Positions 21,191 through 58,915 of a stretch of 64,000 nt of DNA are shown piece by piece (position 1 is the first letter of the stretch; each line of letters opens with the position of its first letter). A model generated the notes under the pieces. That model made no database searches, had not been told where the DNA came from, and saw only the letters and a program-made list of their open reading frames with translations. The stretch is from a virus, in the IMG/VR virus record IMGVR_UViG_3300036770_001537; one strand, 5' to 3'. The position numbers and the translations under genes were made by a program.

Positions 21191-21418
21191 TCAAAGGGGA
21201 AGTTTAATGGTATTTGATTTTGGTAGGTAGTTAAGTTCTTCAGCTTCTACTTTGATCTTACTCTTGAGTAATGGAGATAGAAGTTTTGCTGCTACTTCTA
21301 CCTCCATATCTCTTTCTTCACAATACATAACCACAGCATCCATATATGAAACATCTTTCATATAGACGATTTCTTCAATATCAAGAGAGAACTTCAACAC
21401 TTCATCATTTTTCATCAT
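21191..21418 (-). CDS. gp33: late transcription coactivator gp33
   Basis: FSLDIEEIV..SYMDAVVMYCEE..LKSKIKVEAEELNYL. Confidence 0.92.
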   Translation of the reverse strand: MMKNDEVLKFSLDIEEIVYMKDVSYMDAVVMYCEERDMEVEVAAKLLSPLLKSKIKVEAEELNYLPKSNTIKLPL

Positions 21419-22468: not shown

Positions 22469-22918
22469 TCAATATCCACCATCTTTAACTTGAAGACAAC
22501 GAATGCCTTCCTCTCTCCACATATCAACAACCATTCCACGATCATCTAATGCCATATATGGATCATAGCCGTCAAGGCGAATGTTTTTTAGAATCTCACG
22601 CTTGACGATATTATCATCCCGATAATCACCTTCTTCACGCATATATACCCTATCATAAACTCCTTCAAGACCAGCCTTTTCAATCAACCACTGTTCTGTT
22701 ACTCCACGATATTCATCAGATCGTGCTGTAACAATGAGAATCGTATTACCTGCTTCCTTGAGAGTTTTTACCAACCAGATGATATCTTCATATGGAGTAT
22801 CCATCAATGCTTCTGAATAATATGCAGTCCAATTTTTTGGGCGAACGTAAAGATAATGTTCCCTGTGGTCGGAATCGGCAATGGTTCCGTCCATATCAAC
22901 CAGAATCACTTTTGACAT
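22469..22918 (-). CDS. stand-alone HAD 3'-phosphatase (PseT/PNKP C-terminal domain)
   Basis: DMDGTIA, IVTAR, MREEGDYRDDNIVK, DDR..VVDMWR.EGIRCLQV. Confidence 0.9.
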   Translation of the reverse strand: MSKVILVDMDGTIADSDHREHYLYVRPKNWTAYYSEALMDTPYEDIIWLVKTLKEAGNTILIVTARSDEYRGVTEQWLIEKAGLEGVYDRVYMREEGDYRDDNIVKREILKNIRLDGYDPYMALDDRGMVVDMWREEGIRCLQVKDGGY

Positions 22919-22920
22919 GA

Positions 22921-23604
22921 TTAGCCTTTCTTTTGGTCCCTATGATAAGTTAGGATTTTATCAAAGAGAGTTTCAATGTAGTTCTCTTTACTTTCTATGA
23001 AGACTTGTGGCTTTGGTAGATCATCAGCCAGAATTATAATCACGATTTGGTCTATGACAATTTCTGTCCTTTCCTCATACATCAAAGCATATGCCGTTGC
23101 TTGTTCGAAGTAGTCCTGAATGTGTTCTTTTCTTTTCTCTTTCCTCGATGTCTTGAAATCAATGATTGAAAGAGTTCCGTCAAATTCAGCTATCACATCA
23201 GTTCTTCCAGCAAGCAACATCTTCTCGGAGTAAAGAGATGCTTCTATGTGGTGAATATTGTCTATTCTATCAACATCTGCTCGAATGTCAAGGAAATTCT
23301 GCTTGAGGTCCAGCATAAGATTTTCTGTTAGTGTTTTCACGGGAACATTTTCAAGATATTTTTCAAGCAGGTTATGAACTTTGGTTCCACGAGAAGATGC
23401 TTTAGCAGAAATTTTATTTGCTTCTTCATGTCCGACTCTATCACGCCATGCTTGAATTGCTTTCTTTTTGAAATGACCAAGCATGGTGGTGACAGATATT
23501 GCGTGAGTTCCGTTTGGTAGTATGTAAGTCCTTTTTCCGTCTTTTTCAAATTTGTCTAGTGTCACAAGTTCAGGGAGTCCTGATACATAACGAAATTGTT
23601 TCAT
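22921..23604 (-). CDS. PD-(D/E)XK (Cas4/RecB-like) exonuclease
   Basis: SVTTML, RGTKVH, AGRTDVIAEFDG..IIDFKTS, YFEQATAYA. Confidence 0.9.
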   Translation of the reverse strand: MKQFRYVSGLPELVTLDKFEKDGKRTYILPNGTHAISVTTMLGHFKKKAIQAWRDRVGHEEANKISAKASSRGTKVHNLLEKYLENVPVKTLTENLMLDLKQNFLDIRADVDRIDNIHHIEASLYSEKMLLAGRTDVIAEFDGTLSIIDFKTSRKEKRKEHIQDYFEQATAYALMYEERTEIVIDQIVIIILADDLPKPQVFIESKENYIETLFDKILTYHRDQKKG

Positions 23605-24209
23605 TTCTTTTTGATCCGTTTCTTAGGTCTTGCTGGTGGGGCCTTGGAATCTTCTTCTTTTGGCTTACCAAGAATCATCTTGGTCTTTATCGTGCCACCA
23701 ATTTTTCTCTTATACTTATTTCCACCAAGAACCTTTGTTTTTTTACCAGTTAGTTCAGTTGCACTTCTTGGAGAAATAACAGGTGCTTTGATTTTATTTT
23801 TGATGATATGCTGCATTGGACCAGAAAATTCTCCCCAAACATTACGAGCATCAGCCTGAGTTTTGAAATCCTCTTTCATGATATTGATGAAGTCTTTACT
23901 ACCTTGTTCTGATTTGTTTGTTCCGGCAGCAACAATCTTACGACCTTTTGATGGTTTGTAAAGAACCACAGCAGAGATTTTTCCATCACGCCTTACTGCT
24001 TTGATGTGTGAATTGGAAATGTCAGAATGAATGACTTTAGATTCTTCGTCGGAACCAGATTTCTGACCAGCATAACCACCAAGTTTAGAATATGAGTCAC
24101 GAAGAATATCGTGAATATCCTGCCTGTGAAGCTCACGATATCTTTCATGGTCTGGATTGAATCCTGGATTGAGGAATTTTTCTTCTAAGAATTGTAAAAA
24201 GGTTTCCAT
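23601..24209 (-). CDS. putative capsid-internal protein (CTS-like METFLQFLEE)
   Basis: N-terminal motif; basic tail; fold unknown, possibly GNAT-like. Confidence 0.6.
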   Translation of the reverse strand: METFLQFLEEKFLNPGFNPDHERYRELHRQDIHDILRDSYSKLGGYAGQKSGSDEESKVIHSDISNSHIKAVRRDGKISAVVLYKPSKGRKIVAAGTNKSEQGSKDFINIMKEDFKTQADARNVWGEFSGPMQHIIKNKIKAPVISPRSATELTGKKTKVLGGNKYKRKIGGTIKTKMILGKPKEEDSKAPPARPKKRIKKK

Positions 24210-24221
24210 TGTTGTTCCTTA

Positions 24222-25301
24222 TCAGGGATTTGTTTTTTGTTGTATGTTAGCAGCTACTCTTTTAAACCAAGAAGGTGAATCGCCATAGTTTGTGTATGTT
24301 GGTTTTCCTTCTCGTCGTCTTGCTCCCGCTCTTTTAGCCCATTCTTCATCTTCTCTGCCCATATGATCCGCAAGTCTGGCAGCCTTATATGCTTTTTGCT
24401 CACGTTCGCCAAATCCATGATCAACAATAACAAGATGTTCTTCGCCAGTATCTGGGTCCGTCGAAACTCCCCAATTTCCAGGTTGCGAATAATCCATTGG
24501 AGGTGTGCCAGTTTCAATCTGGTGCTGAAGAAGATTTTTGAAAAGTGGATGTGAAGTTATAGCATCCAGCTTTGCTTCATTTGCAGGACCAGTGTCGTGA
24601 TATGCCCCTCTACTCTTATGCCATTCTCTTTCTAGAGCACGAATCAAATGATGAAAAACTATTCCGTCTGGATGACTATCTGTTCTAGATATTTTAGTAA
24701 ATTCTCTACCAGATTTTATTCTACGAGCATAACCAGCTTCTGTCCATCTATGCTCCTTAACATCATGAGCATGTAGTTCTGGGAATATCCCATTTTTATT
24801 TCTTGTATATGTCCCATCGGGATTTCTAATATAGATACGCCATTTGTTATTTTTTTCATCTCCCGTTACAGGGTCTTTCATTCCGTTTTCGGCTTCATTT
24901 TGCATAACACCTAAAGGCGTTTTATTACCTAGGCTCTTATGTGCTTCATCAAGAGGTGCAGGTTGTGCAACTTTAAAAACGGTAGGGACTTCAGTTTCTT
25001 TTCCATCAAGAATTATGGTGTTGGTTTTATCTGGTTCTGTAATATTTTTAGTTCTATCTAAAGGTGCATCTGGAGAAGGTCTAGTGACCATTTGTGGCAA
25101 CAATGCCAATCTTGATGACCCTGATGCAACTTCTCCGAAACCAGGGTTTTCACCAAGACGCCTTGCAGCATCTCCCATAGCAGTAATCATCGGACCACTA
25201 AGTTTGTCATGATTATCCGCCTTTGTAATGGCATGTAGAATATCTGGATGAATTTTATGTTCTACTGCAAGTTCTTCTCTTATCTGCTTGAGAGTTTTCA
25301 T
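24222..25301 (-). CDS. putative capsid-internal protein with protein-kinase-like motifs
   Basis: MKTLKQIREE; SGSSR, VFKVA, QNEAE, DYSQPGNWG, VIVDHGF. Confidence 0.6.
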   Translation of the reverse strand: MKTLKQIREELAVEHKIHPDILHAITKADNHDKLSGPMITAMGDAARRLGENPGFGEVASGSSRLALLPQMVTRPSPDAPLDRTKNITEPDKTNTIILDGKETEVPTVFKVAQPAPLDEAHKSLGNKTPLGVMQNEAENGMKDPVTGDEKNNKWRIYIRNPDGTYTRNKNGIFPELHAHDVKEHRWTEAGYARRIKSGREFTKISRTDSHPDGIVFHHLIRALEREWHKSRGAYHDTGPANEAKLDAITSHPLFKNLLQHQIETGTPPMDYSQPGNWGVSTDPDTGEEHLVIVDHGFGEREQKAYKAARLADHMGREDEEWAKRAGARRREGKPTYTNYGDSPSWFKRVAANIQQKTNP

Positions 25302-26011
25302 ATCCCCATCTCTGTTCTGGTGACTATATAATCTTTCACAAGCCCAGACCTAACAATATCTGGCTTGTCAAATTCAATATAATCAAATCTGTTCATTTGT
25401 TTAGTTATATTTATAAACTTCATGAGTCCAGATTTATCTTTATCGTTAGACAAGTCGGTTTGTCTAAAGTCACCACAGAAAACAATCTTGGAATCGTCAC
25501 CCATACGAGTCATGACAGTATCGAGTTCACCGAATGTCATATTCTGGAGTTCATCAACAATCACGATTGCGTTTTTGAATGTCACTCCGCGAAGATATGA
25601 TGTTGTCGTGAATTGAACTAGCCCTTTCATTTTTAGAATATCATATCCATCACCACGACCAAACAAATCATCACAGATTTCTTTGTATGGTTCTTCATAT
25701 ACCTTGATCTTCTCTTTGATATTGCCGGGAAGGAAACCCATATCTCTTGATGGCACTACCGAACGAATGATAACAACCTTATCACATACAGAACGGCCTT
25801 TCAATACTTCTTCTAATGCTAGATAAAGAGAGATGAAAGATTTACCTGTTCCAGCGAATCCATGAAGTATCAAATTCTGCCCGTCACGATATGAATCAAA
25901 TGTCTTTTGCTGGTTTGGTGTTAGTGGATAGATTGTTCTAAGTTCAAAGTGTGTTTTTGCTTGTTGAACTTTGCTTTGTAGTTGTTCTCTCTTTACTTTT
26001 CTTTTTGACAT
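25298..26011 (-). CDS. phoH: PhoH-like ATPase
   Basis: GFAGTGKS, RSVVPSRDMGFLPG, RGVTF, VDELQN, FCGDFRQTDL, DIVRSGLV; GGAG RBS before MSKRK. Confidence 0.95.
   Translation of the reverse strand: MSKRKVKREQLQSKVQQAKTHFELRTIYPLTPNQQKTFDSYRDGQNLILHGFAGTGKSFISLYLALEEVLKGRSVCDKVVIIRSVVPSRDMGFLPGNIKEKIKVYEEPYKEICDDLFGRGDGYDILKMKGLVQFTTTSYLRGVTFKNAIVIVDELQNMTFGELDTVMTRMGDDSKIVFCGDFRQTDLSNDKDKSGLMKFINITKQMNRFDYIEFDKPDIVRSGLVKDYIVTRTEMGI
25408..25415 (-). promoter_or_regulatory. late promoter inside phoH, positioned for the two CTS-like genes
   Basis: tatttata about 110 nt upstream of 25301. Confidence 0.5.
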
Positions 26012-26029
26012 AGTGTCTCCTTTATGTAC

Positions 26030-26061
26030 GACAAAGGGCCTACCTTTCGGCAAGCCCTTTG
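26030..26061. terminator. hairpin between HNH gene and phoH (terminator or processing site)
   Basis: acaaagggc..tttcg..gccctttgt inverted repeat. Confidence 0.5.
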
Positions 26062-26098
26062 TTTTAACTTTGGATTGATAGTTAAATTTGTTACTCAA

Positions 26099-26623
26099 TT
26101 AAATTTCCGTTTTATTATGCTTTTGCAGATGCTGGTTTAAATTACCTTTGCCTCTACACAATTTACCGCAGACATTACATTCATATTTAGGAACTTTGTA
26201 TTGTGCAATTCTATCCAAATCTTTTTCTTCGTCTGTTTTGATACGACCTTTATTCCAAGGAATCTGTCCTATGTGACTCGTCCTCATTTTCTCTTTAGAT
26301 TCCTTTGTAAATTTATAACCAGTTAGTGGATGTCCTTTTGTTTTAAATCTTTTCTTTTGACTGATACCTATAGTTTTTCTGGTTTCATCACTTATAATTC
26401 TATTTTTCATATAGAGTCTTTGTACTTCTTTTATGGCTTCGGCAGAACTAATTTGACCAGATAGCATTTGCCAAGCAATTTTATCTTGCCAGTGACCTAA
26501 GTCCTCCCATAATTGCTTATGTAAAGCAGCATGTTCTTCTACAGTAACAGTGACGAGATTAGATGGGTCATCCGATCCACCCATATGTTTTGGTATGATA
26601 TGGTGCTTGTGATAAATAGTCAT
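26099..26623 (-). CDS. HNH homing endonuclease with NUMOD3-like repeats and C-terminal zinc finger
   Basis: HKHHIIPKHMGGSDDPSNLV..EEHAALH; PWNKG; CNVC..H. Confidence 0.88.
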   Translation of the reverse strand: MTIYHKHHIIPKHMGGSDDPSNLVTVTVEEHAALHKQLWEDLGHWQDKIAWQMLSGQISSAEAIKEVQRLYMKNRIISDETRKTIGISQKKRFKTKGHPLTGYKFTKESKEKMRTSHIGQIPWNKGRIKTDEEKDLDRIAQYKVPKYECNVCGKLCRGKGNLNQHLQKHNKTEI

Positions 26624-26690
26624 GGCTGGTGCTCCTTTCAGCATTAGAGTGGTTGGATGCTGGTAACATCGCGAACCACAACTATTTATA
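26624..26690 (-). promoter_or_regulatory. late promoter plus conserved structured 5' leader of HNH gene (copy 1)
   Basis: TATAAATA..GTGGTTcgcGATGttaccagCATCcAACCAC-TCTAA-TGCTgaaaggAGCA-CCAGCC-ATG; matches the copy at 56495-56566. Confidence 0.8.
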
Positions 26691-26985: not shown

Positions 26986-27543
26986 TCATTCTGTCATCCA
27001 CAACGGTGCTTCACGGTTGGTCCATTTGTGAAGATGTGATTTACCATGCTTGTAATAATTGCGGTAGTTCACGACAGAATCTTCTGAGATTATATATGAA
27101 TCATCCATAGCAGGTGGTGGTTGAGTGAAATTTGCGGGAGAGATATTGTTAGGAACATCTCGAAGAACACTAGCCATCGTTTCACACTTATGTTTCTTGC
27201 CGTAACGATAAGTGTATTCATCCAGTAGAGCAATGAAATGGTCATATAGCCAAACATAATTAGCAGTAGATTGACGACACCAAATAGCAGAAGGATGATT
27301 AACATGAGTTGCTGAATATAGAGCACTCTCACGATCATCATCCAATACCCAACGCTTTACATTTCGGTGCCTAATTGGAAGAGAACCATTAACGACTTTC
27401 TTTTCTACAGTCAGTTTGCCGTCAAGCACACGATGAGCAGTTGATAGAAGTTGGGCACTCTCAAGAATCATTTTAACACAGTGACTATTAACGAGACATT
27501 GAGCAGCAATAGTCGGGTTTTTATCTACATAGAAGACGTTCAT
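26986..27543 (-). CDS. pyrimidine-dimer DNA glycosylase family protein (DenV-like)
   Basis: MNVFYVD, HCVKMILESAQLLSTAH, THVNHPSAIW, EYTYRYGKKH, YRNYY. Confidence 0.85.
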   Translation of the reverse strand: MNVFYVDKNPTIAAQCLVNSHCVKMILESAQLLSTAHRVLDGKLTVEKKVVNGSLPIRHRNVKRWVLDDDRESALYSATHVNHPSAIWCRQSTANYVWLYDHFIALLDEYTYRYGKKHKCETMASVLRDVPNNISPANFTQPPPAMDDSYIISEDSVVNYRNYYKHGKSHLHKWTNREAPLWMTE

Positions 27544-38661: not shown

Positions 38662-38828
38662 TTTTTACCTTTTGCTTGTTCAAGTGCTCTCAATTTTCTT
38701 TTTAGAAATTCTCTTACATCCTGATTGGCTCTCATCATCTGTCTTTTAGTATTGACGATAGCATTTTCTATTTCTTTGGGATCAGGATTGTCGTTTACCT
38801 CACGGATAATCTGCCTTAGCGATTTCAT
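38658..38828 (-). CDS. 56-aa putative capsid-internal protein (MKSLRQIIRE; not in ORF track)
   Basis: Manual translation; ATGA-coupled on both sides. Confidence 0.65.
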   Translation of the reverse strand: MKSLRQIIREVNDNPDPKEIENAIVNTKRQMMRANQDVREFLKRKLRALEQAKGKK

Positions 38829-39094
38829 TTAGATGGCTTTTTTCTTTTTGTTCCTTTTGGAACCATTCTGATGATGGGTTTTCCAGGCGGATGCTTTACC
38901 ATTTTATTAGCTTCGCTACGAGGAATCATTAATTGTCGTTTAGCATTTTTAATTGGTGGTTTTGCTGCTGGTGGGACCACTTCTAATTTCTGAGCTTCTT
39001 CATCTGGACTTACAATGCCCCCTTGCTCAACATCACGTCTCCATGATTCTTTAAGTTCTCTTGATTCAGCAATAATTTGTTTGAGTGTTTTCAT
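38825..39094 (-). CDS. putative capsid-internal protein (MKTLKQIIAE)
   Basis: AAGGA RBS; CTS-like start. Confidence 0.65.
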   Translation of the reverse strand: MKTLKQIIAESRELKESWRRDVEQGGIVSPDEEAQKLEVVPPAAKPPIKNAKRQLMIPRSEANKMVKHPPGKPIIRMVPKGTKRKKPSK

Positions 39095-39110: not shown

Positions 39111-39845
39111 TTAATCTTCTGCTTTTTCGCCACCAATCATTTTTAATGAATCGTCTAGTCTTAATAATTCTACTAGGTGTCCTGAACCAGCAAAATATAC
39201 ACCAGACTTTCTATTCAAAAGAAAAGTGTTCCTAGCATCATCAACTTTTTTAGCAAGTTTACCTGCTTTGTTTGGATATTCTTGCCAATTTTTAGGCCAT
39301 GATAAACTTTCACCTTTATTTAGAAACATATTAACATTTTCTTTTGTTGCTGGCAATTCTGACAATTTTATAAAATCTACATCCTTTTCACTACACATGG
39401 AGAGAAATTTTTTCAGAGTAGCATCATCAAACTCTCTATCTTTAAGATATGCAATTTTTTTCTGTGCCTTCATAATACTATCAAATATACTCATGGAAGG
39501 TCTGAGAAGGTTTTCTCTTTGATTATTTACTTTAGTATTAGCAAATAATGTGTATAGATATTCTGGCGGATATCCTTTGACAGTCTTTTCAAATTCATGA
39601 TCCCAAGACCCTTCATACTTAGATTTGTCACTAAATCCAGTTGTTGATGAAACATCTCCCCCATTACCTTCATACCAATAGCCATATTTACTACCAATTG
39701 TTTTAATTTTTTCAATCAACTCATCACTCAATATCAAAGGTTTCATGTGTTCCTTGCCGACATAAACTTTGTTTCCGTCAAATATCACGCCTCTTGGTGC
39801 TTCACTTTGTTTTTGTTCGTAAAGAAATTGTCTGAATGTTTTCAT
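39111..39845 (-). CDS. putative capsid-internal protein (MKTFRQFLYE)
   Basis: CTS-like start; G.EH, YEG, RN, GSGHL pattern reminiscent of TraB/EreA-like metallo-hydrolases (weak). Confidence 0.65.
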   Translation of the reverse strand: MKTFRQFLYEQKQSEAPRGVIFDGNKVYVGKEHMKPLILSDELIEKIKTIGSKYGYWYEGNGGDVSSTTGFSDKSKYEGSWDHEFEKTVKGYPPEYLYTLFANTKVNNQRENLLRPSMSIFDSIMKAQKKIAYLKDREFDDATLKKFLSMCSEKDVDFIKLSELPATKENVNMFLNKGESLSWPKNWQEYPNKAGKLAKKVDDARNTFLLNRKSGVYFAGSGHLVELLRLDDSLKMIGGEKAED

Positions 39846-40249
39846 ATTTTAAATTTTTCTAAGTGTTCTCTGGGTATAATTCTTACAGGTATAGTTTCAT
39901 GACCACCTTCAATCGCTTTACCCAATCTATGAGTGCCATCCAAAACGTGCAAAGAACCATCCGGTCTATGTGTGGCAATAATCGGATATTTAATATCTGC
40001 TTTATCGGTTCTCATTCTTTCATCTTTTTCAGATTCACTACCTTTTCTTGCTTCTATATTATCTGACATTGATTTAGGATCAAGATGTTGAACTGGATAT
40101 TTGTCTTTACCATCTTCATCCGTCTGTTCAGCATGAGCAATCAAATCTGAAACTTTGAATCTATATGATTCAGCATTATCACCTTCACCAAAACTAACAC
40201 CTGCTGTCGCATCTGTAGATTCTTTTATAAACTGTTTAAATGACATCAT
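39842..40249 (-). CDS. putative capsid-internal ParB/Srx-like protein (MMSFKQFIKE)
   Basis: ADIKYPII..VLDGTHRLGKA. Confidence 0.7.
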   Translation of the reverse strand: MMSFKQFIKESTDATAGVSFGEGDNAESYRFKVSDLIAHAEQTDEDGKDKYPVQHLDPKSMSDNIEARKGSESEKDERMRTDKADIKYPIIATHRPDGSLHVLDGTHRLGKAIEGGHETIPVRIIPREHLEKFKI

Positions 40250-46395: not shown

Positions 46396-47265
46396 TTATT
46401 TTTTATTTGTCCATAGAGGTTTTTCTGGTAAAGGGTCTCTATGTTCTGGTGATATAAGTGTCTGTGGTATTTGCCTTTCAGCATAATCTGCCAATGGTCC
46501 CGACATATTTCTAGTAGAAACATAACCGCCTTCACCTGCTTCTCTTGATATTCCGGTTTTAGGATCATGAATGTTATATACAATTCCTGGAAATTTTTCA
46601 GGATTTGTTCTCATATGTAAAGACATAGCATGAGCACCTTCAGACCTTGAACTGTTAGTTAATTTGATTTTGCCGTTACTGTTAGCATATACTCCTCCAT
46701 GATTAAAAATGGCATATTTACCAGACTTACCATTCATTAACATATAATAAGCATGGGCAACAAACCCCTTTGGTCCTCCCTCTCTACCACGAGTAAATAA
46801 GTTTGAATGGAGTTCTTCATCCGGATTGTGTTCAGATTGTAACACGCGAGATTCTATATGTGCATTAACGTGTCCCGTTTTTCTATCTGTAAATAAAGTA
46901 GTTCTTTCTGTTGCTCCAGGAATATCCGGATGTTTCTCATTAAATATATGGATTAAATGTTTACCATCTCCAGCATCATGTGTGATATCAGGTTTTCTAC
47001 CAAAATCAGATATAAAATCATCAAAATGTGTGTCTTCGGGCATTTTATCGCCTGTACTAATATTATTCCTTCTTTCTTCAAAGATAGCCTTCCTTCTCAT
47101 AACCACAGAAGTTTGATTATCTTGAATTTCTTTCTGTTTCTTCTTAGAAACTCCAGGCTCACCCCAATTAGCAGGTTTATCAGGAGGATTAACACCAACA
47201 CCAGGAATGGCACCTGATCCAACAGAATTGGCAATTTCTTCTCTTAGTGTTTTGAATTTCTTCAT
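46396..47265 (-). CDS. putative capsid-internal protein (MKKFKTLREE), possible GNAT-like C-domain
   Basis: CTS-like start; ANSVGSGAIPG..EPGV module. Confidence 0.6.
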   Translation of the reverse strand: MKKFKTLREEIANSVGSGAIPGVGVNPPDKPANWGEPGVSKKKQKEIQDNQTSVVMRRKAIFEERRNNISTGDKMPEDTHFDDFISDFGRKPDITHDAGDGKHLIHIFNEKHPDIPGATERTTLFTDRKTGHVNAHIESRVLQSEHNPDEELHSNLFTRGREGGPKGFVAHAYYMLMNGKSGKYAIFNHGGVYANSNGKIKLTNSSRSEGAHAMSLHMRTNPEKFPGIVYNIHDPKTGISREAGEGGYVSTRNMSGPLADYAERQIPQTLISPEHRDPLPEKPLWTNKK

Positions 47266-55918: not shown

Positions 55919-56494
55919 TTATAAATTTCTTCCTTTATACCAGCCTAATGGTATAGTTTCGCATTTTTTTATTTTTTTATTAGTTATCCCATCCGTAATC
56001 CACATTGTACCATATTGAGAATTTTTGATTCCTTGTTGATGTTTATTTTTTGCGAACTGCGACTTTCTAATATTTCTATATTCAGGGTCTTTCCACTTTT
56101 CAAGTAAAACTAGATTATTCTTTTCTAGTGTTTTCAATTTCTGTTTTTTAAACTCTTCATCGGTTTTGTATTTTTCTATGTATGCCTTTATGCCGGATTT
56201 TTGCCATTTTTCTAAATATATTTTTCTATATTCTAAATCAGTATTAAATTTATTTTTATGTATCATGCCGCCTTTTTTACCGCCCATAGACATTGCCATT
56301 AGTGCTGCTTCTTTTGATGATATTAATCCTTCAAGTCCCATCCAAGCAACATAATCTTGCCAGTGTCCTAAGTCTTCCCATAATTGTTTATGTAAAGCAG
56401 CATGTTCTTCTACAGTTACTTCAATAAGATTGGATGGATCGTCTGTTCCACCCATATGTTTAGGTATGATATGATGTGTGTGATAAATAGACAT
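55919..56494 (-). CDS. HNH homing endonuclease
   Basis: HTHHIIPKHMGGTDDPSNL..EEHAALH; C-terminal NSQYGTMWITDG..GWYKGR. Confidence 0.88.
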   Translation of the reverse strand: MSIYHTHHIIPKHMGGTDDPSNLIEVTVEEHAALHKQLWEDLGHWQDYVAWMGLEGLISSKEAALMAMSMGGKKGGMIHKNKFNTDLEYRKIYLEKWQKSGIKAYIEKYKTDEEFKKQKLKTLEKNNLVLLEKWKDPEYRNIRKSQFAKNKHQQGIKNSQYGTMWITDGITNKKIKKCETIPLGWYKGRNL

Positions 56495-56566
56495 GGCTGA
56501 TACCTCCATTATAGGTGTTAGAGTGGTTAGATGCTTCCAACATCGTGAACCACATTTTTATTTATA
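56495..56566 (-). promoter_or_regulatory. late promoter plus conserved structured 5' leader of HNH gene (copy 2)
   Basis: TATAAATA..GTGGTTcacGATGttggaagCATCtAACCAC-TCTAA-cACCTataatggAGGT-aTCAGCC-ATG. Confidence 0.8.
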
Positions 56567-57307: not shown

Positions 57308-58531
57308 CTATTTAGTTGCTTTGGTGTTATGTGTTAATGATGCAACCGGTGTATATCCATATTCTTGCATCAAAAATGGTAGCATATAATGTTTGATATT
57401 ATATTTTACTATGTCTTTATCTTCCAAAGAAGCACCTGCCTTCATTCCCCTAGAATGTGCTACTGCAATTGTAGCTATATGTAATGGGCTTCCGCCCTCT
57501 GCACTATGGGCAAATAATCTTATAGAAGATTTTTTCTTCCCTCCTCTAGTTTCAAATTCCATAGAATAGTCTGTGGGTTTAAATCTATCTTGAAAAAATT
57601 TCCATGCATGATCCACATCATATATATGTGTGCCCTCACTACTATCTACTACCCTCCACCTTTTTATGTGTGGTTCTTGCTCTCTTGTTCCAGATGGTAT
57701 CAATTCATGTTGATTCATAAAAGTGTTGGCTAATCTTATTCTTTCCGATTGTTTTCTCTTATCTGATATAGAGTCATTTCTTGTTCTTATTTTTGAACCC
57801 ATACCACCTTTAGTATATAATGGACTTTTATAAAATAGTCTTTTAATTTTTCCTAATGTAGATAATCTTTCTTTATATTTTTTGGAACCTCTAGTCATTG
57901 TCGATGGAACTAAGTCTTTCTTGGCAACCCATTCACCTTTATCATTTTTTATAGTTCCTGTTAATACTCTATTCAATCTTTCGGCCATAGGGTTAAAATG
58001 ACTGTACTGTGGGCTCATTTTCAAATCTATCAGATATGTATCTGGGCGTCCATCTTTCGCATTATTTAATTTTGTTATCAAGTCCTCAACTGCTCTACCG
58101 GAAGTGAATGATGGAACCCCCATAGATTTTCTCACTGCATTTTTTGTTTGTGTTGATGAATCTTTTGTTTCATGTGAATGTGAGGTTGGGTTTATGCCAG
58201 ATACTGCATACATTGCGTGATGTATAAAATGTGCAATATTTCTTGATCTGGCTTCATCATTTGGACTATTTGCTGTATATTGTAATGTTTGAATTACCCC
58301 TTTATTTTCAGCATCATTTGTCATAGGATAATATGAGAAATTTTCATATCCGAGAGGGGATTCTGATGATCCTTTAGGATAATTGGCGGACGCAATTAGA
58401 GATGAATTTGTGTTTGCCATATTCAATGATGTAGAATTTTTAATTAATCTTGGTTCCGATTTAAGTGCTGGCTCTAAAGTTCCCCTTTTACCGGTAGCCA
58501 TCTCTGCAATATATTGTCTAAATGTGAGCAT
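57308..58531 (-). CDS. putative capsid-internal protein (MLTFRQYIAE)
   Basis: CTS-like start; late promoter 58560-58567. Confidence 0.7.
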   Translation of the reverse strand: MLTFRQYIAEMATGKRGTLEPALKSEPRLIKNSTSLNMANTNSSLIASANYPKGSSESPLGYENFSYYPMTNDAENKGVIQTLQYTANSPNDEARSRNIAHFIHHAMYAVSGINPTSHSHETKDSSTQTKNAVRKSMGVPSFTSGRAVEDLITKLNNAKDGRPDTYLIDLKMSPQYSHFNPMAERLNRVLTGTIKNDKGEWVAKKDLVPSTMTRGSKKYKERLSTLGKIKRLFYKSPLYTKGGMGSKIRTRNDSISDKRKQSERIRLANTFMNQHELIPSGTREQEPHIKRWRVVDSSEGTHIYDVDHAWKFFQDRFKPTDYSMEFETRGGKKKSSIRLFAHSAEGGSPLHIATIAVAHSRGMKAGASLEDKDIVKYNIKHYMLPFLMQEYGYTPVASLTHNTKATK

Positions 58532-58559: not shown

Positions 58560-58573
58560 TATTTATATAAATA
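58560..58573. promoter_or_regulatory. overlapping divergent late promoters
   Basis: TATTTATATAAATA = TATAAATA on both strands. Confidence 0.85.
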
Positions 58574-58600: not shown

Positions 58601-58915
58601 ATGAAAACATTCAAAGACTTTATTCAAGAAGCAAGAACTCAAATCTCACCAGAAGAAAAAGAACAGATCGTCAGGCTATACAACAAGAGAATTAAAGAAA
58701 CTCGTAAGTCTGGTGCTAATTTTAGTATACACTCACTAGCTGATGAGACTGGTTACAGCCATCAAACACTAAGAAGGCATATATTCACTCGTGGTGTTTA
58801 TAACAGTATTGTGGGCAACATTAAAGAGAAAGAACCTGGTTTTGAACACGTAGAAATGAGATTTGGTGCAGGAAGACCTAAGAAAGAGGGCAAACCACAT
58901 AAATGGTCTGGATAG
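58601..58915 (+). CDS. putative capsid-internal HTH protein (MKTFKDFIQE)
   Basis: SIHSLADETGYSHQTLRRH helix-turn-helix. Confidence 0.7.
   Translation: MKTFKDFIQEARTQISPEEKEQIVRLYNKRIKETRKSGANFSIHSLADETGYSHQTLRRHIFTRGVYNSIVGNIKEKEPGFEHVEMRFGAGRPKKEGKPHKWSG

Follow-up and report, generated by a model that had tools for sequence, protein, structure and literature searches.

A candidate head-delivered mini-kinase with a T4-like capsid-targeting leader in an uncultured T4-like myophage

Results

We describe a gene of an uncultured marine T4-like myophage that very probably encodes a phosphotransferase with a protein kinase-like (PKL) fold and whose product begins with a leader resembling the T4 capsid targeting sequence. 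The gene, P0001 (24222-25301, minus strand; 359 aa), lies in a 64,000-nucleotide stretch of IMG/VR record IMGVR_UViG_3300036770_001537, referred to below as the window; the source record is a 74.5-kb fragment, ~45% complete. The assignment draws on the open reading frame (ORF) call, a family of 131 representative proteins and an AlphaFold2 (AF2) model. With regard to delivery, the leader and a late-promoter motif make it rather probable that the protein is packaged in the phage head and injected. The complete reading, namely an active mini-kinase that is packaged by means of its leader and injected, is one toward which we lean on balance.

Predicted fold and active site

The AF2 model was computed from an alignment of 72 near-full-length family members with a mean column identity of 18% (alignment A2, to which all conservation counts below refer). 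It has a predicted local distance difference test score (pLDDT) of 88.8 and a predicted template modeling score (pTM) of 0.82; the model obtained from the single sequence was unusable (pLDDT 38.8). The predicted structure has the bilobal arrangement of PKL proteins, in which an N-lobe β-sheet with helix αC is followed by a helix, the catalytic loop, two short strands and a metal-binding aspartate. In the N-lobe, strands 57-60 and 64-68 flank the GSSR motif, strand 107-112 carries K110 and helix 130-139 carries E138. The middle part of the model comprises strands 176-179 and 186-190 and then helices up to helix 252-264. These lead to the loop containing D270 and N276, strands 277-281 and 288-292, the D294-H-G motif and one conserved helix (Y305, R309). 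As this single conserved helix is all that follows D-H-G, the usual C-lobe is missing. Two inserts are specific to the family, a β-hairpin block at residues 69-106 with D99-G100 and a hairpin at residues 157-167 with N168 and G171.

A preliminary description of the gene had listed five motifs in kinase order, and re-translation of the 359-aa ORF placed each of them at its exact coordinates. All of the motifs are on the minus strand. G61-S62-S63-R64 (25110-25121) occupies the position of the glycine-rich loop between the first two N-lobe strands, as judged from the alignment and the strands of the model. VFKVA (24966-24980) contains K110 (24972-24974), the predicted ATP-anchoring lysine, which is present in 72 of the 72 sequences. 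The alignment and the model both assign E138 of Q134-N135-E-A-E138 (QNEAE, 24888-24902) as the predicted αC glutamate. The catalytic-loop analog DYSQPGN (24474-24494), which runs from D270 to N276, lies between helix 252-264 and strand 277-281. The DFG-like metal-binding motif D294-H-G296 (24414-24422) follows strand 288-292.

Residues R64, K110, G131, D270, D294 and G296 are invariant in the alignment. Conservation of at least 90% was found for D99, G100, Q134 (71/72), N135 (67/72), E138 (71/72), N168, G171, G213, H251, P252, N276 (71/72), G278, H282, P283 and Y305, and also for G61, S62 and S63, where it reaches at least 94%. The five motifs are thus the most constrained positions of the family and are therefore not chance look-alikes. 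Each member of the PKL catalytic set, that is the β3 lysine, the αC glutamate, the catalytic aspartate and asparagine and the DFG-type aspartate, is located on the expected element of the model. The catalytic D..N pair proposed earlier holds for the residues themselves, whereas the D-x5-N spacing seen in the window protein is atypical of the family. It arises from P274, a one-residue insertion of the window protein and its closest relatives that corresponds to a gap in 51 of the 72 members, so that the family as a rule has D-x4-N, the spacing canonical for kinases. Many members also contain H-P-x-D, with an extra residue between the histidine and the catalytic aspartate.

A Foldseek search of the Protein Data Bank (PDB) returned no strong match (best E value 4.8e-3), and 49 of the best 50 rows were PKL folds. 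The matches include PsiK, Rio1, PknS, choline kinase, PINK1 and JAK2 JH2, and the structural alignments usually end near residue 300, in agreement with the missing C-lobe. The VIA search, which is independent of Foldseek, also yielded PKL folds in 49 of 50 rows. The best matches in BFVD were uncharacterised myophage proteins, with E values down to 6.7e-8, and entries of the T7-type 'protein kinase' appeared at about 2e-3 to 2e-2. Shape neighbors in the ESM Atlas were three unnamed viral clusters, followed by Pkinase clusters and one PI3/PI4-kinase cluster. Neighbors found with a protein language model, which serve as leads only, include Phage_T7_kinase, Kinase-PolyVal and YrbL clusters.

The kinase fold that the preliminary description had proposed is borne out by the confident model, by fold searches with almost exclusively kinase-like results and by a Lys, Glu, Asp, Asn and Asp set that is conserved throughout the family. 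Fold and likely activity are well supported by the model and the conservation, with catalysis itself being what we infer from them. That description had also spoken of a protein kinase. Compared with other kinds of phosphotransferase, an enzyme acting on protein substrates is an even prospect at best.

Family members and their distribution

A profile search of 1.84 billion cluster representatives identified 131 proteins at E ≤ 1e-3, 47 of them at E ≤ 1e-30, and most of the 131 are 270-320 aa long. At 50% identity the family resolves into about 130 clusters, almost all metagenomic and viral in origin. No family of Pfam, PHROGs or NCBIfam matched the protein or the members scanned, and Pfam scans of longer or fused members revealed no informative partner domain. 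Sequence and profile searches of the PDB gave chance matches only, including a cGAS segment at E 0.57. A megablast search with 10 kb returned no match. Neither did a tblastn search of 50,697 phage records with three family members (the window protein and two divergent ones), by which no leader-bearing member was found in cultured phages.

A profile search of individual genomes identified a remote homolog in phage RaK2, ORF356 (194 aa; L017 2116-2700, record positions 241615-242199). It contains the motifs GSSR, VLKVA, QQNTAE, VDLNVGNIG (D-x4-N-x-G) and RDYGLS...Y..AR. The hhalign comparison gave a probability of 90% and an E value of 1.6e-6, with D-Y-G aligned at D294-H-G296 of the window protein. 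This short form is present in 58 cultured jumbo myophages of the PBECO4, phAPEC6 and fHe-Yen9-04 types, where it is almost always annotated as hypothetical and as a kinase in two records only.

The closely related loci L003 and L004 encode a kinase that is 40% identical to the window protein. In both, three leader-bearing genes stand in a row and encode the kinase, an acid-phosphatase-like protein and a 202-aa protein. The acid-phosphatase-like protein (249 aa; L003 2429-3178, L004 3612-4361) has a leader of its own, MLTFKQFLNLSE, and is absent from the window. Judging by their leaders, the kinase and the phosphatase of these sister phages may both be head cargo. Other loci contain tandem mini-kinase paralogs, two in L005 (88-981 and 999-1550) and three each in L006 (5267-7737; a 215-kb contig) and L007 (5260-9136; a 26-kb contig). 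The first paralog in L006 and L007 begins right at the G-[ST]-[ST]-R loop, without a leader, and an ART-PolyVal ADP-ribosyltransferase gene is located about 3-5 kb downstream of the kinase paralogs. Paralog expansion together with variable neighbors is what one expects of host-interaction genes, and we read the tandem paralogs and the nearby ART-PolyVal gene as an arms-race signature.

Capsid-targeting-like leader and late-promoter motif

The T4 internal proteins IPII and IPIII start with MKTYQEFIAE, which is the T4 capsid targeting sequence (PMC8442874), and the T4 prohead protease gp21 cleaves after L/I-x-E (PMC9026906). Re-translation shows that the kinase starts with MKTLKQIREE (25272-25301, minus strand), with I-R-E at residues 7-9. 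The T4 capsid-targeting-like leader as a whole, MKTLKQIREELAVE (25260-25301, minus strand), offers possible protease sites past E9 (I-R-E) or E14 (A-V-E). Canonical versions of the leader are present in members of the family, with MKTFKQFLAE, MKSFKRFLEQ and MKTFKEFIKL among the homologs. An (I/L/V)-x-E site is found just ahead of a conserved LHPEL in at least 47 of the members listed.

Leaders of this kind recur in seven further ORFs of the phage. The gene directly downstream of the kinase (23601-24209, minus strand), which has the same neighborhood in L003 and L004, encodes a 202-aa protein with no assigned function and the leader METFLQFLEE. Four more are on the minus strand at 38825-39094 (MKTLKQIIAE), 39111-39845 (MKTFRQFLYE), 39842-40249 (MMSFKQFIKE) and 46396-47265 (MKKFKTLREE). 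The remaining two are divergent, at 57308-58531 on the minus strand (MLTFRQYIAE) and at 58601-58915 on the plus strand (MKTFKDFIQE). The seven are unrelated in sequence and matched no Pfam or NCBIfam family; their leaders suggest that they are probably a set of head-loaded proteins. The kinase and ORF 38825-39094 have MKTLKQI in common.

A pattern that describes these leaders fits 8 of the 102 ORFs of the fragment as well as T4's own tag, with 0 internal occurrences in 22,958 residues. The pattern was drawn up only after viewing the ORFs, and the unbiased test is the scoring of N-termini against the T4 tag. Six ORF N-termini score at least 20, a value reached by at most 0.05% of internal 9-mers, and that of ORF 38825-39094 scores 25.

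The T4-type late-promoter motif TATAAATA is present at 25408-25415 (minus strand), where the preliminary description had noted a late promoter. It is situated inside the 3' end of phoH and starts 114 nt upstream of the kinase ATG. L003 and L004 have the motif at the same -114 offset, though nearby synonymous sites differ. The window contains 16 copies of the motif compared with 6.65 expected, and no shuffle reached 16. The gene of the late-transcription coactivator gp33 is at 21191-21418. Two overlapping copies on opposite strands (58560-58573) lie between the divergent leader genes 57308-58531 and 58601-58915. An exact copy thereby precedes each ATG by 35-36 nt, which suggests a back-to-back late promoter pair.

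The evidence for delivery in the virion, as proposed in the preliminary description, consists of the T4-like leader with its (I/L)-x-E site and the late-promoter motif, and these two sequence features make it plausible.

Gene neighborhood

The window encodes gp32, gp33, gp6, gp25 and a T4 baseplate protein. By gp32, the nearest cultured relatives of the phage are marine cyanomyoviruses, at 53-56% identity. In the direction of transcription, a DenV-like gene, an 87-aa gene, an HNH endonuclease gene and phoH (25298-26098, minus strand; Pfam PhoH, E 2.4e-44) precede the kinase gene. The 202-aa protein, a PD-(D/E)XK exonuclease and a stand-alone PNKP-type phosphatase are encoded after it. The kinase ATG overlaps the TGA stop of phoH (ATGA). 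Linkage of the phosphatase and exonuclease genes to the kinase was found only in the close relatives L003 and L004 and is absent in L001, L006 and L007.

The PNKP-type phosphatase (149 aa, 22469-22918) is of the HAD type and does not contain a P-loop kinase half. In T4 PseT, a P-loop kinase half is fused to the phosphatase. The idea that P0001 supplies the missing kinase half of the neighboring phosphatase was set aside as the principal interpretation because the linkage is not conserved outside the close relatives.

Two HNH/NUMOD3 homing-endonuclease genes, 26099-26644 and 55919-56509, have near-identical N-termini. The first of them, between the 87-aa gene and phoH, has no counterpart at that position in L003 and L004 and for this reason looks like a recent mobile insertion. 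In T4 (L014, 62500-67500), ipIII and ipII immediately precede denV on its upstream side. The window has its DenV-like gene (26986-27543) four genes upstream of the leader-bearing pair formed by the kinase and 202-aa genes. This loose positional echo may be a coincidence.

Discussion

Proposed mechanism

In the reading that we favor, the gene would encode an active, minimal PKL phosphotransferase without the usual C-lobe, and the first 9-14 residues of the protein would correspond in this phage to the capsid targeting sequence of T4. Synthesis of the protein would accompany that of the head proteins and would depend, at least in part, on the TATAAATA promoter within phoH. The protein would then enter the core of the prohead and be cut after a glutamate by a gp21-type prohead protease. 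The kinase would remain in the head once this is filled and leave it along with the DNA. At the expense of host ATP, it would phosphorylate targets of the host at a time when no phage gene is yet expressed. Such delivery would parallel that of the packaged T4 ADP-ribosyltransferase Alt. What the analysis shows is the fold, the conservation of residues, the similarity of the leader and the promoter motif. Catalysis, packaging, cleavage, injection and a protein substrate are steps that we infer, as is the action immediately on injection put forward in the preliminary description.

Several observations weigh against this reading. The kinase's own leader scores 13 against the T4 tag, a value reached by 0.4% of internal 9-mers, and its position 8 is an arginine, not isoleucine or leucine. 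A search of the ~45%-complete fragment for a prohead protease with Peptidase_S77 was negative, which says little because the control genomes gave no match either. The protein is predicted to be 39 kDa with a mature form near neutral (isoelectric point about 7), unlike the basic T4 internal proteins. Genes of replication and repair surround the kinase gene, whose ATG overlaps the phoH stop; its expression therefore need not be late-only and could begin earlier in infection. The structural matches have modest scores, and neither hidden Markov model (HMM) searches nor profile comparisons connected the protein with a named kinase family. Lastly, gp356 of RaK2 is not in the list of virion proteins identified by mass spectrometry for that phage, a weak negative that concerns a leaderless form. 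The fold itself therefore does not imply packaging.

Alternative explanations

The protein might instead be an unpackaged, cytoplasmic enzyme of the same fold that is made with its PhoH and repair neighbors and phosphorylates RNA, a nucleotide or another small molecule, its N-terminal peptide being no more than one of the helices of the fold or a start that favors translation. The overlap with the phoH stop and the proximity of PhoH, the PD-(D/E)XK exonuclease and a PNKP-type phosphatase without its kinase half would suit such an enzyme. The same can be said of the minimal fold, which is without a protein-substrate lobe, of the fold matches to the RNA kinases Ark1 and TkArkI and to the small-molecule kinases APH, choline kinase and PsiK, and of the RaK2 homolog, leaderless and off the virion list. 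However, the phosphatase and exonuclease linkage is confined to L003 and L004, being absent in L001, L006 and L007. Moreover, other proteins of this phage that are unrelated in sequence have the leader as well, it matches the T4 tag and never occurs protein-internally, and in many family members an (I/L)-x-E site follows it. We regard an unpackaged enzyme as unlikely, although it is the main rival to the favored reading.

Two other explanations concern the activity and the fold. A packaged internal protein could act by binding, either as an inhibitor of a host defence nuclease in the manner of T4 IPI to IPIII or as a pseudokinase scaffold. The three T4 internal proteins with known targets are all stoichiometric inhibitors (PMC12373910), and the pseudokinases JAK2 JH2, ULK4 and IRAK3 are among the structural matches. 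This explanation appears very improbable in view of the phosphotransfer residues, which are invariant or nearly so in 72 sequences of 18% mean identity, as is typical of active enzymes. The least probable explanation that we considered is a non-kinase ATP-utilising fold of similar topology, of the ATP-grasp or SAICAR-synthetase type, or a misleading model. Against it stand the high confidence of the model, the 49 of 50 PKL rows in both the Foldseek PDB and VIA searches, and an order of motifs that is a PKL signature, with the loop, Lys, Glu and D-x4-N and then D-x-G following two short strands.

Novelty and significance

To our knowledge, few phage proteins act at time zero of infection, the examples being the T4 internal proteins, T4 Alt and the N4 virion RNA polymerase. 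If the favored reading is true, a packaged kinase adds phosphorylation of proteins or metabolites to these time-zero functions. It would also assign a function to some 130 sequence clusters, a dark family that goes unrecognised by the annotation libraries. The finding further favors the view that, among marine T4-like phages, the T4 capsid targeting sequence is an address label that is both general and transferable. Experiments could start at once from the leaderless relatives, which occur in cultured jumbo phages of the RaK2 and PBECO4 types.

Kinases of phages (T7 gp0.7) and effectors packaged in the head (T4 internal proteins and Alt) are already known, and truncated kinases that arrive with invading DNA have been predicted computationally (Kinase-PolyVal; PMC5512222). 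We found no published account of a kinase that bears a T4-type capsid leader. The new element is an uncatalogued mini-kinase family that appears, from its N-termini, to be joined to a known delivery tag. A broader and more tentative proposal, to which we assign somewhat less than an even chance, is that marine T4-like phages preload their heads with signalling enzymes by way of a T4-type leader, with the mini-kinase and the acid-phosphatase-like protein of the sister phages as cargo. Host proteins would then be phosphorylated within seconds, prior to transcription, by an 'injected kinome' that might serve takeover or the blunting of immune sensors.

Comparison with known systems

Hanks-type kinases have a full C-lobe with an activation segment, APE motif and helices F to I, whereas the mini-kinase core stops one helix past D-H-G. 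The Pkinase family (PF00069) matched neither the window protein at E 1 nor the 72 members at E 0.1. The minimal atypical kinases of the Rio, Bud32 and Ark1 types are 9-15% identical to the window protein and differ from it in that the mini-kinase family has inserts of its own and in their unrelated biology. The RIO1 (PF01163) and YrbL (PF10707) HMMs had no match in the genome at E 10.

Kinase-PolyVal (PF18762) comprises the truncated kinase domains of polyvalent proteins from phages and plasmids, for which host entry along with the invading DNA has been predicted (Iyer et al. 2017, PMC5512222). It resembles the mini-kinase in its kinase core without the C-terminal subdomain, its retained active-site residues and its predicted host entry, and also in H-P-x-D, which many mini-kinase members share. 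One neighboring Atlas cluster carries PF18762, and the language-model neighbor score is 0.93-0.94. The PF18762 HMM had no match in the genome at E 10 or in the 72 members at E 0.1. Kinase-PolyVal is a domain of giant multidomain proteins, whereas the window kinase is stand-alone and has a T4-type leader; the phage groups and hosts also differ.

The Ser/Thr protein kinase T7 gp0.7, whose family newer Pfam releases list as Phage_T7_kinase, is likewise a compact phage-encoded protein of the kinase fold, presumably for host takeover, and is a weak neighbor of the mini-kinase in structure and language-model searches. hhalign comparisons of A2 with gp0.7, alone or as a 7-member alignment, revealed no profile relation (probability at most 1%). 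The loop motifs differ, being GNGHF and D-x-H-x-x-N...DP in gp0.7 and GSSR and D-x4-N...D-[YH]-G in the mini-kinase family. Moreover, gp0.7 is an early gene product that is made after injection and has no capsid leader, whereas the window kinase has one. The uncharacterised RaK2 ORF356, which shares the motifs of the family, is without the leader, the N-terminal helices and the inserts.

The known T4 head cargo consists of small basic inhibitors or an ADP-ribosyltransferase, whereas the protein described here is a near-neutral 39-kDa enzyme of the kinase fold. Beyond the leader, the window kinase has no sequence similarity to the T4 proteins, and its packaging and cleavage are predictions from sequence. 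The likeness to T4 resides in the short N-terminal leader of the same pattern that ends in a glutamate and has an (I/L)-x-E site, and in a T4-like phage with a gp33-type late system and TATAAATA motifs. Like T4 Alt, the enzyme would be delivered ready-made with the DNA.
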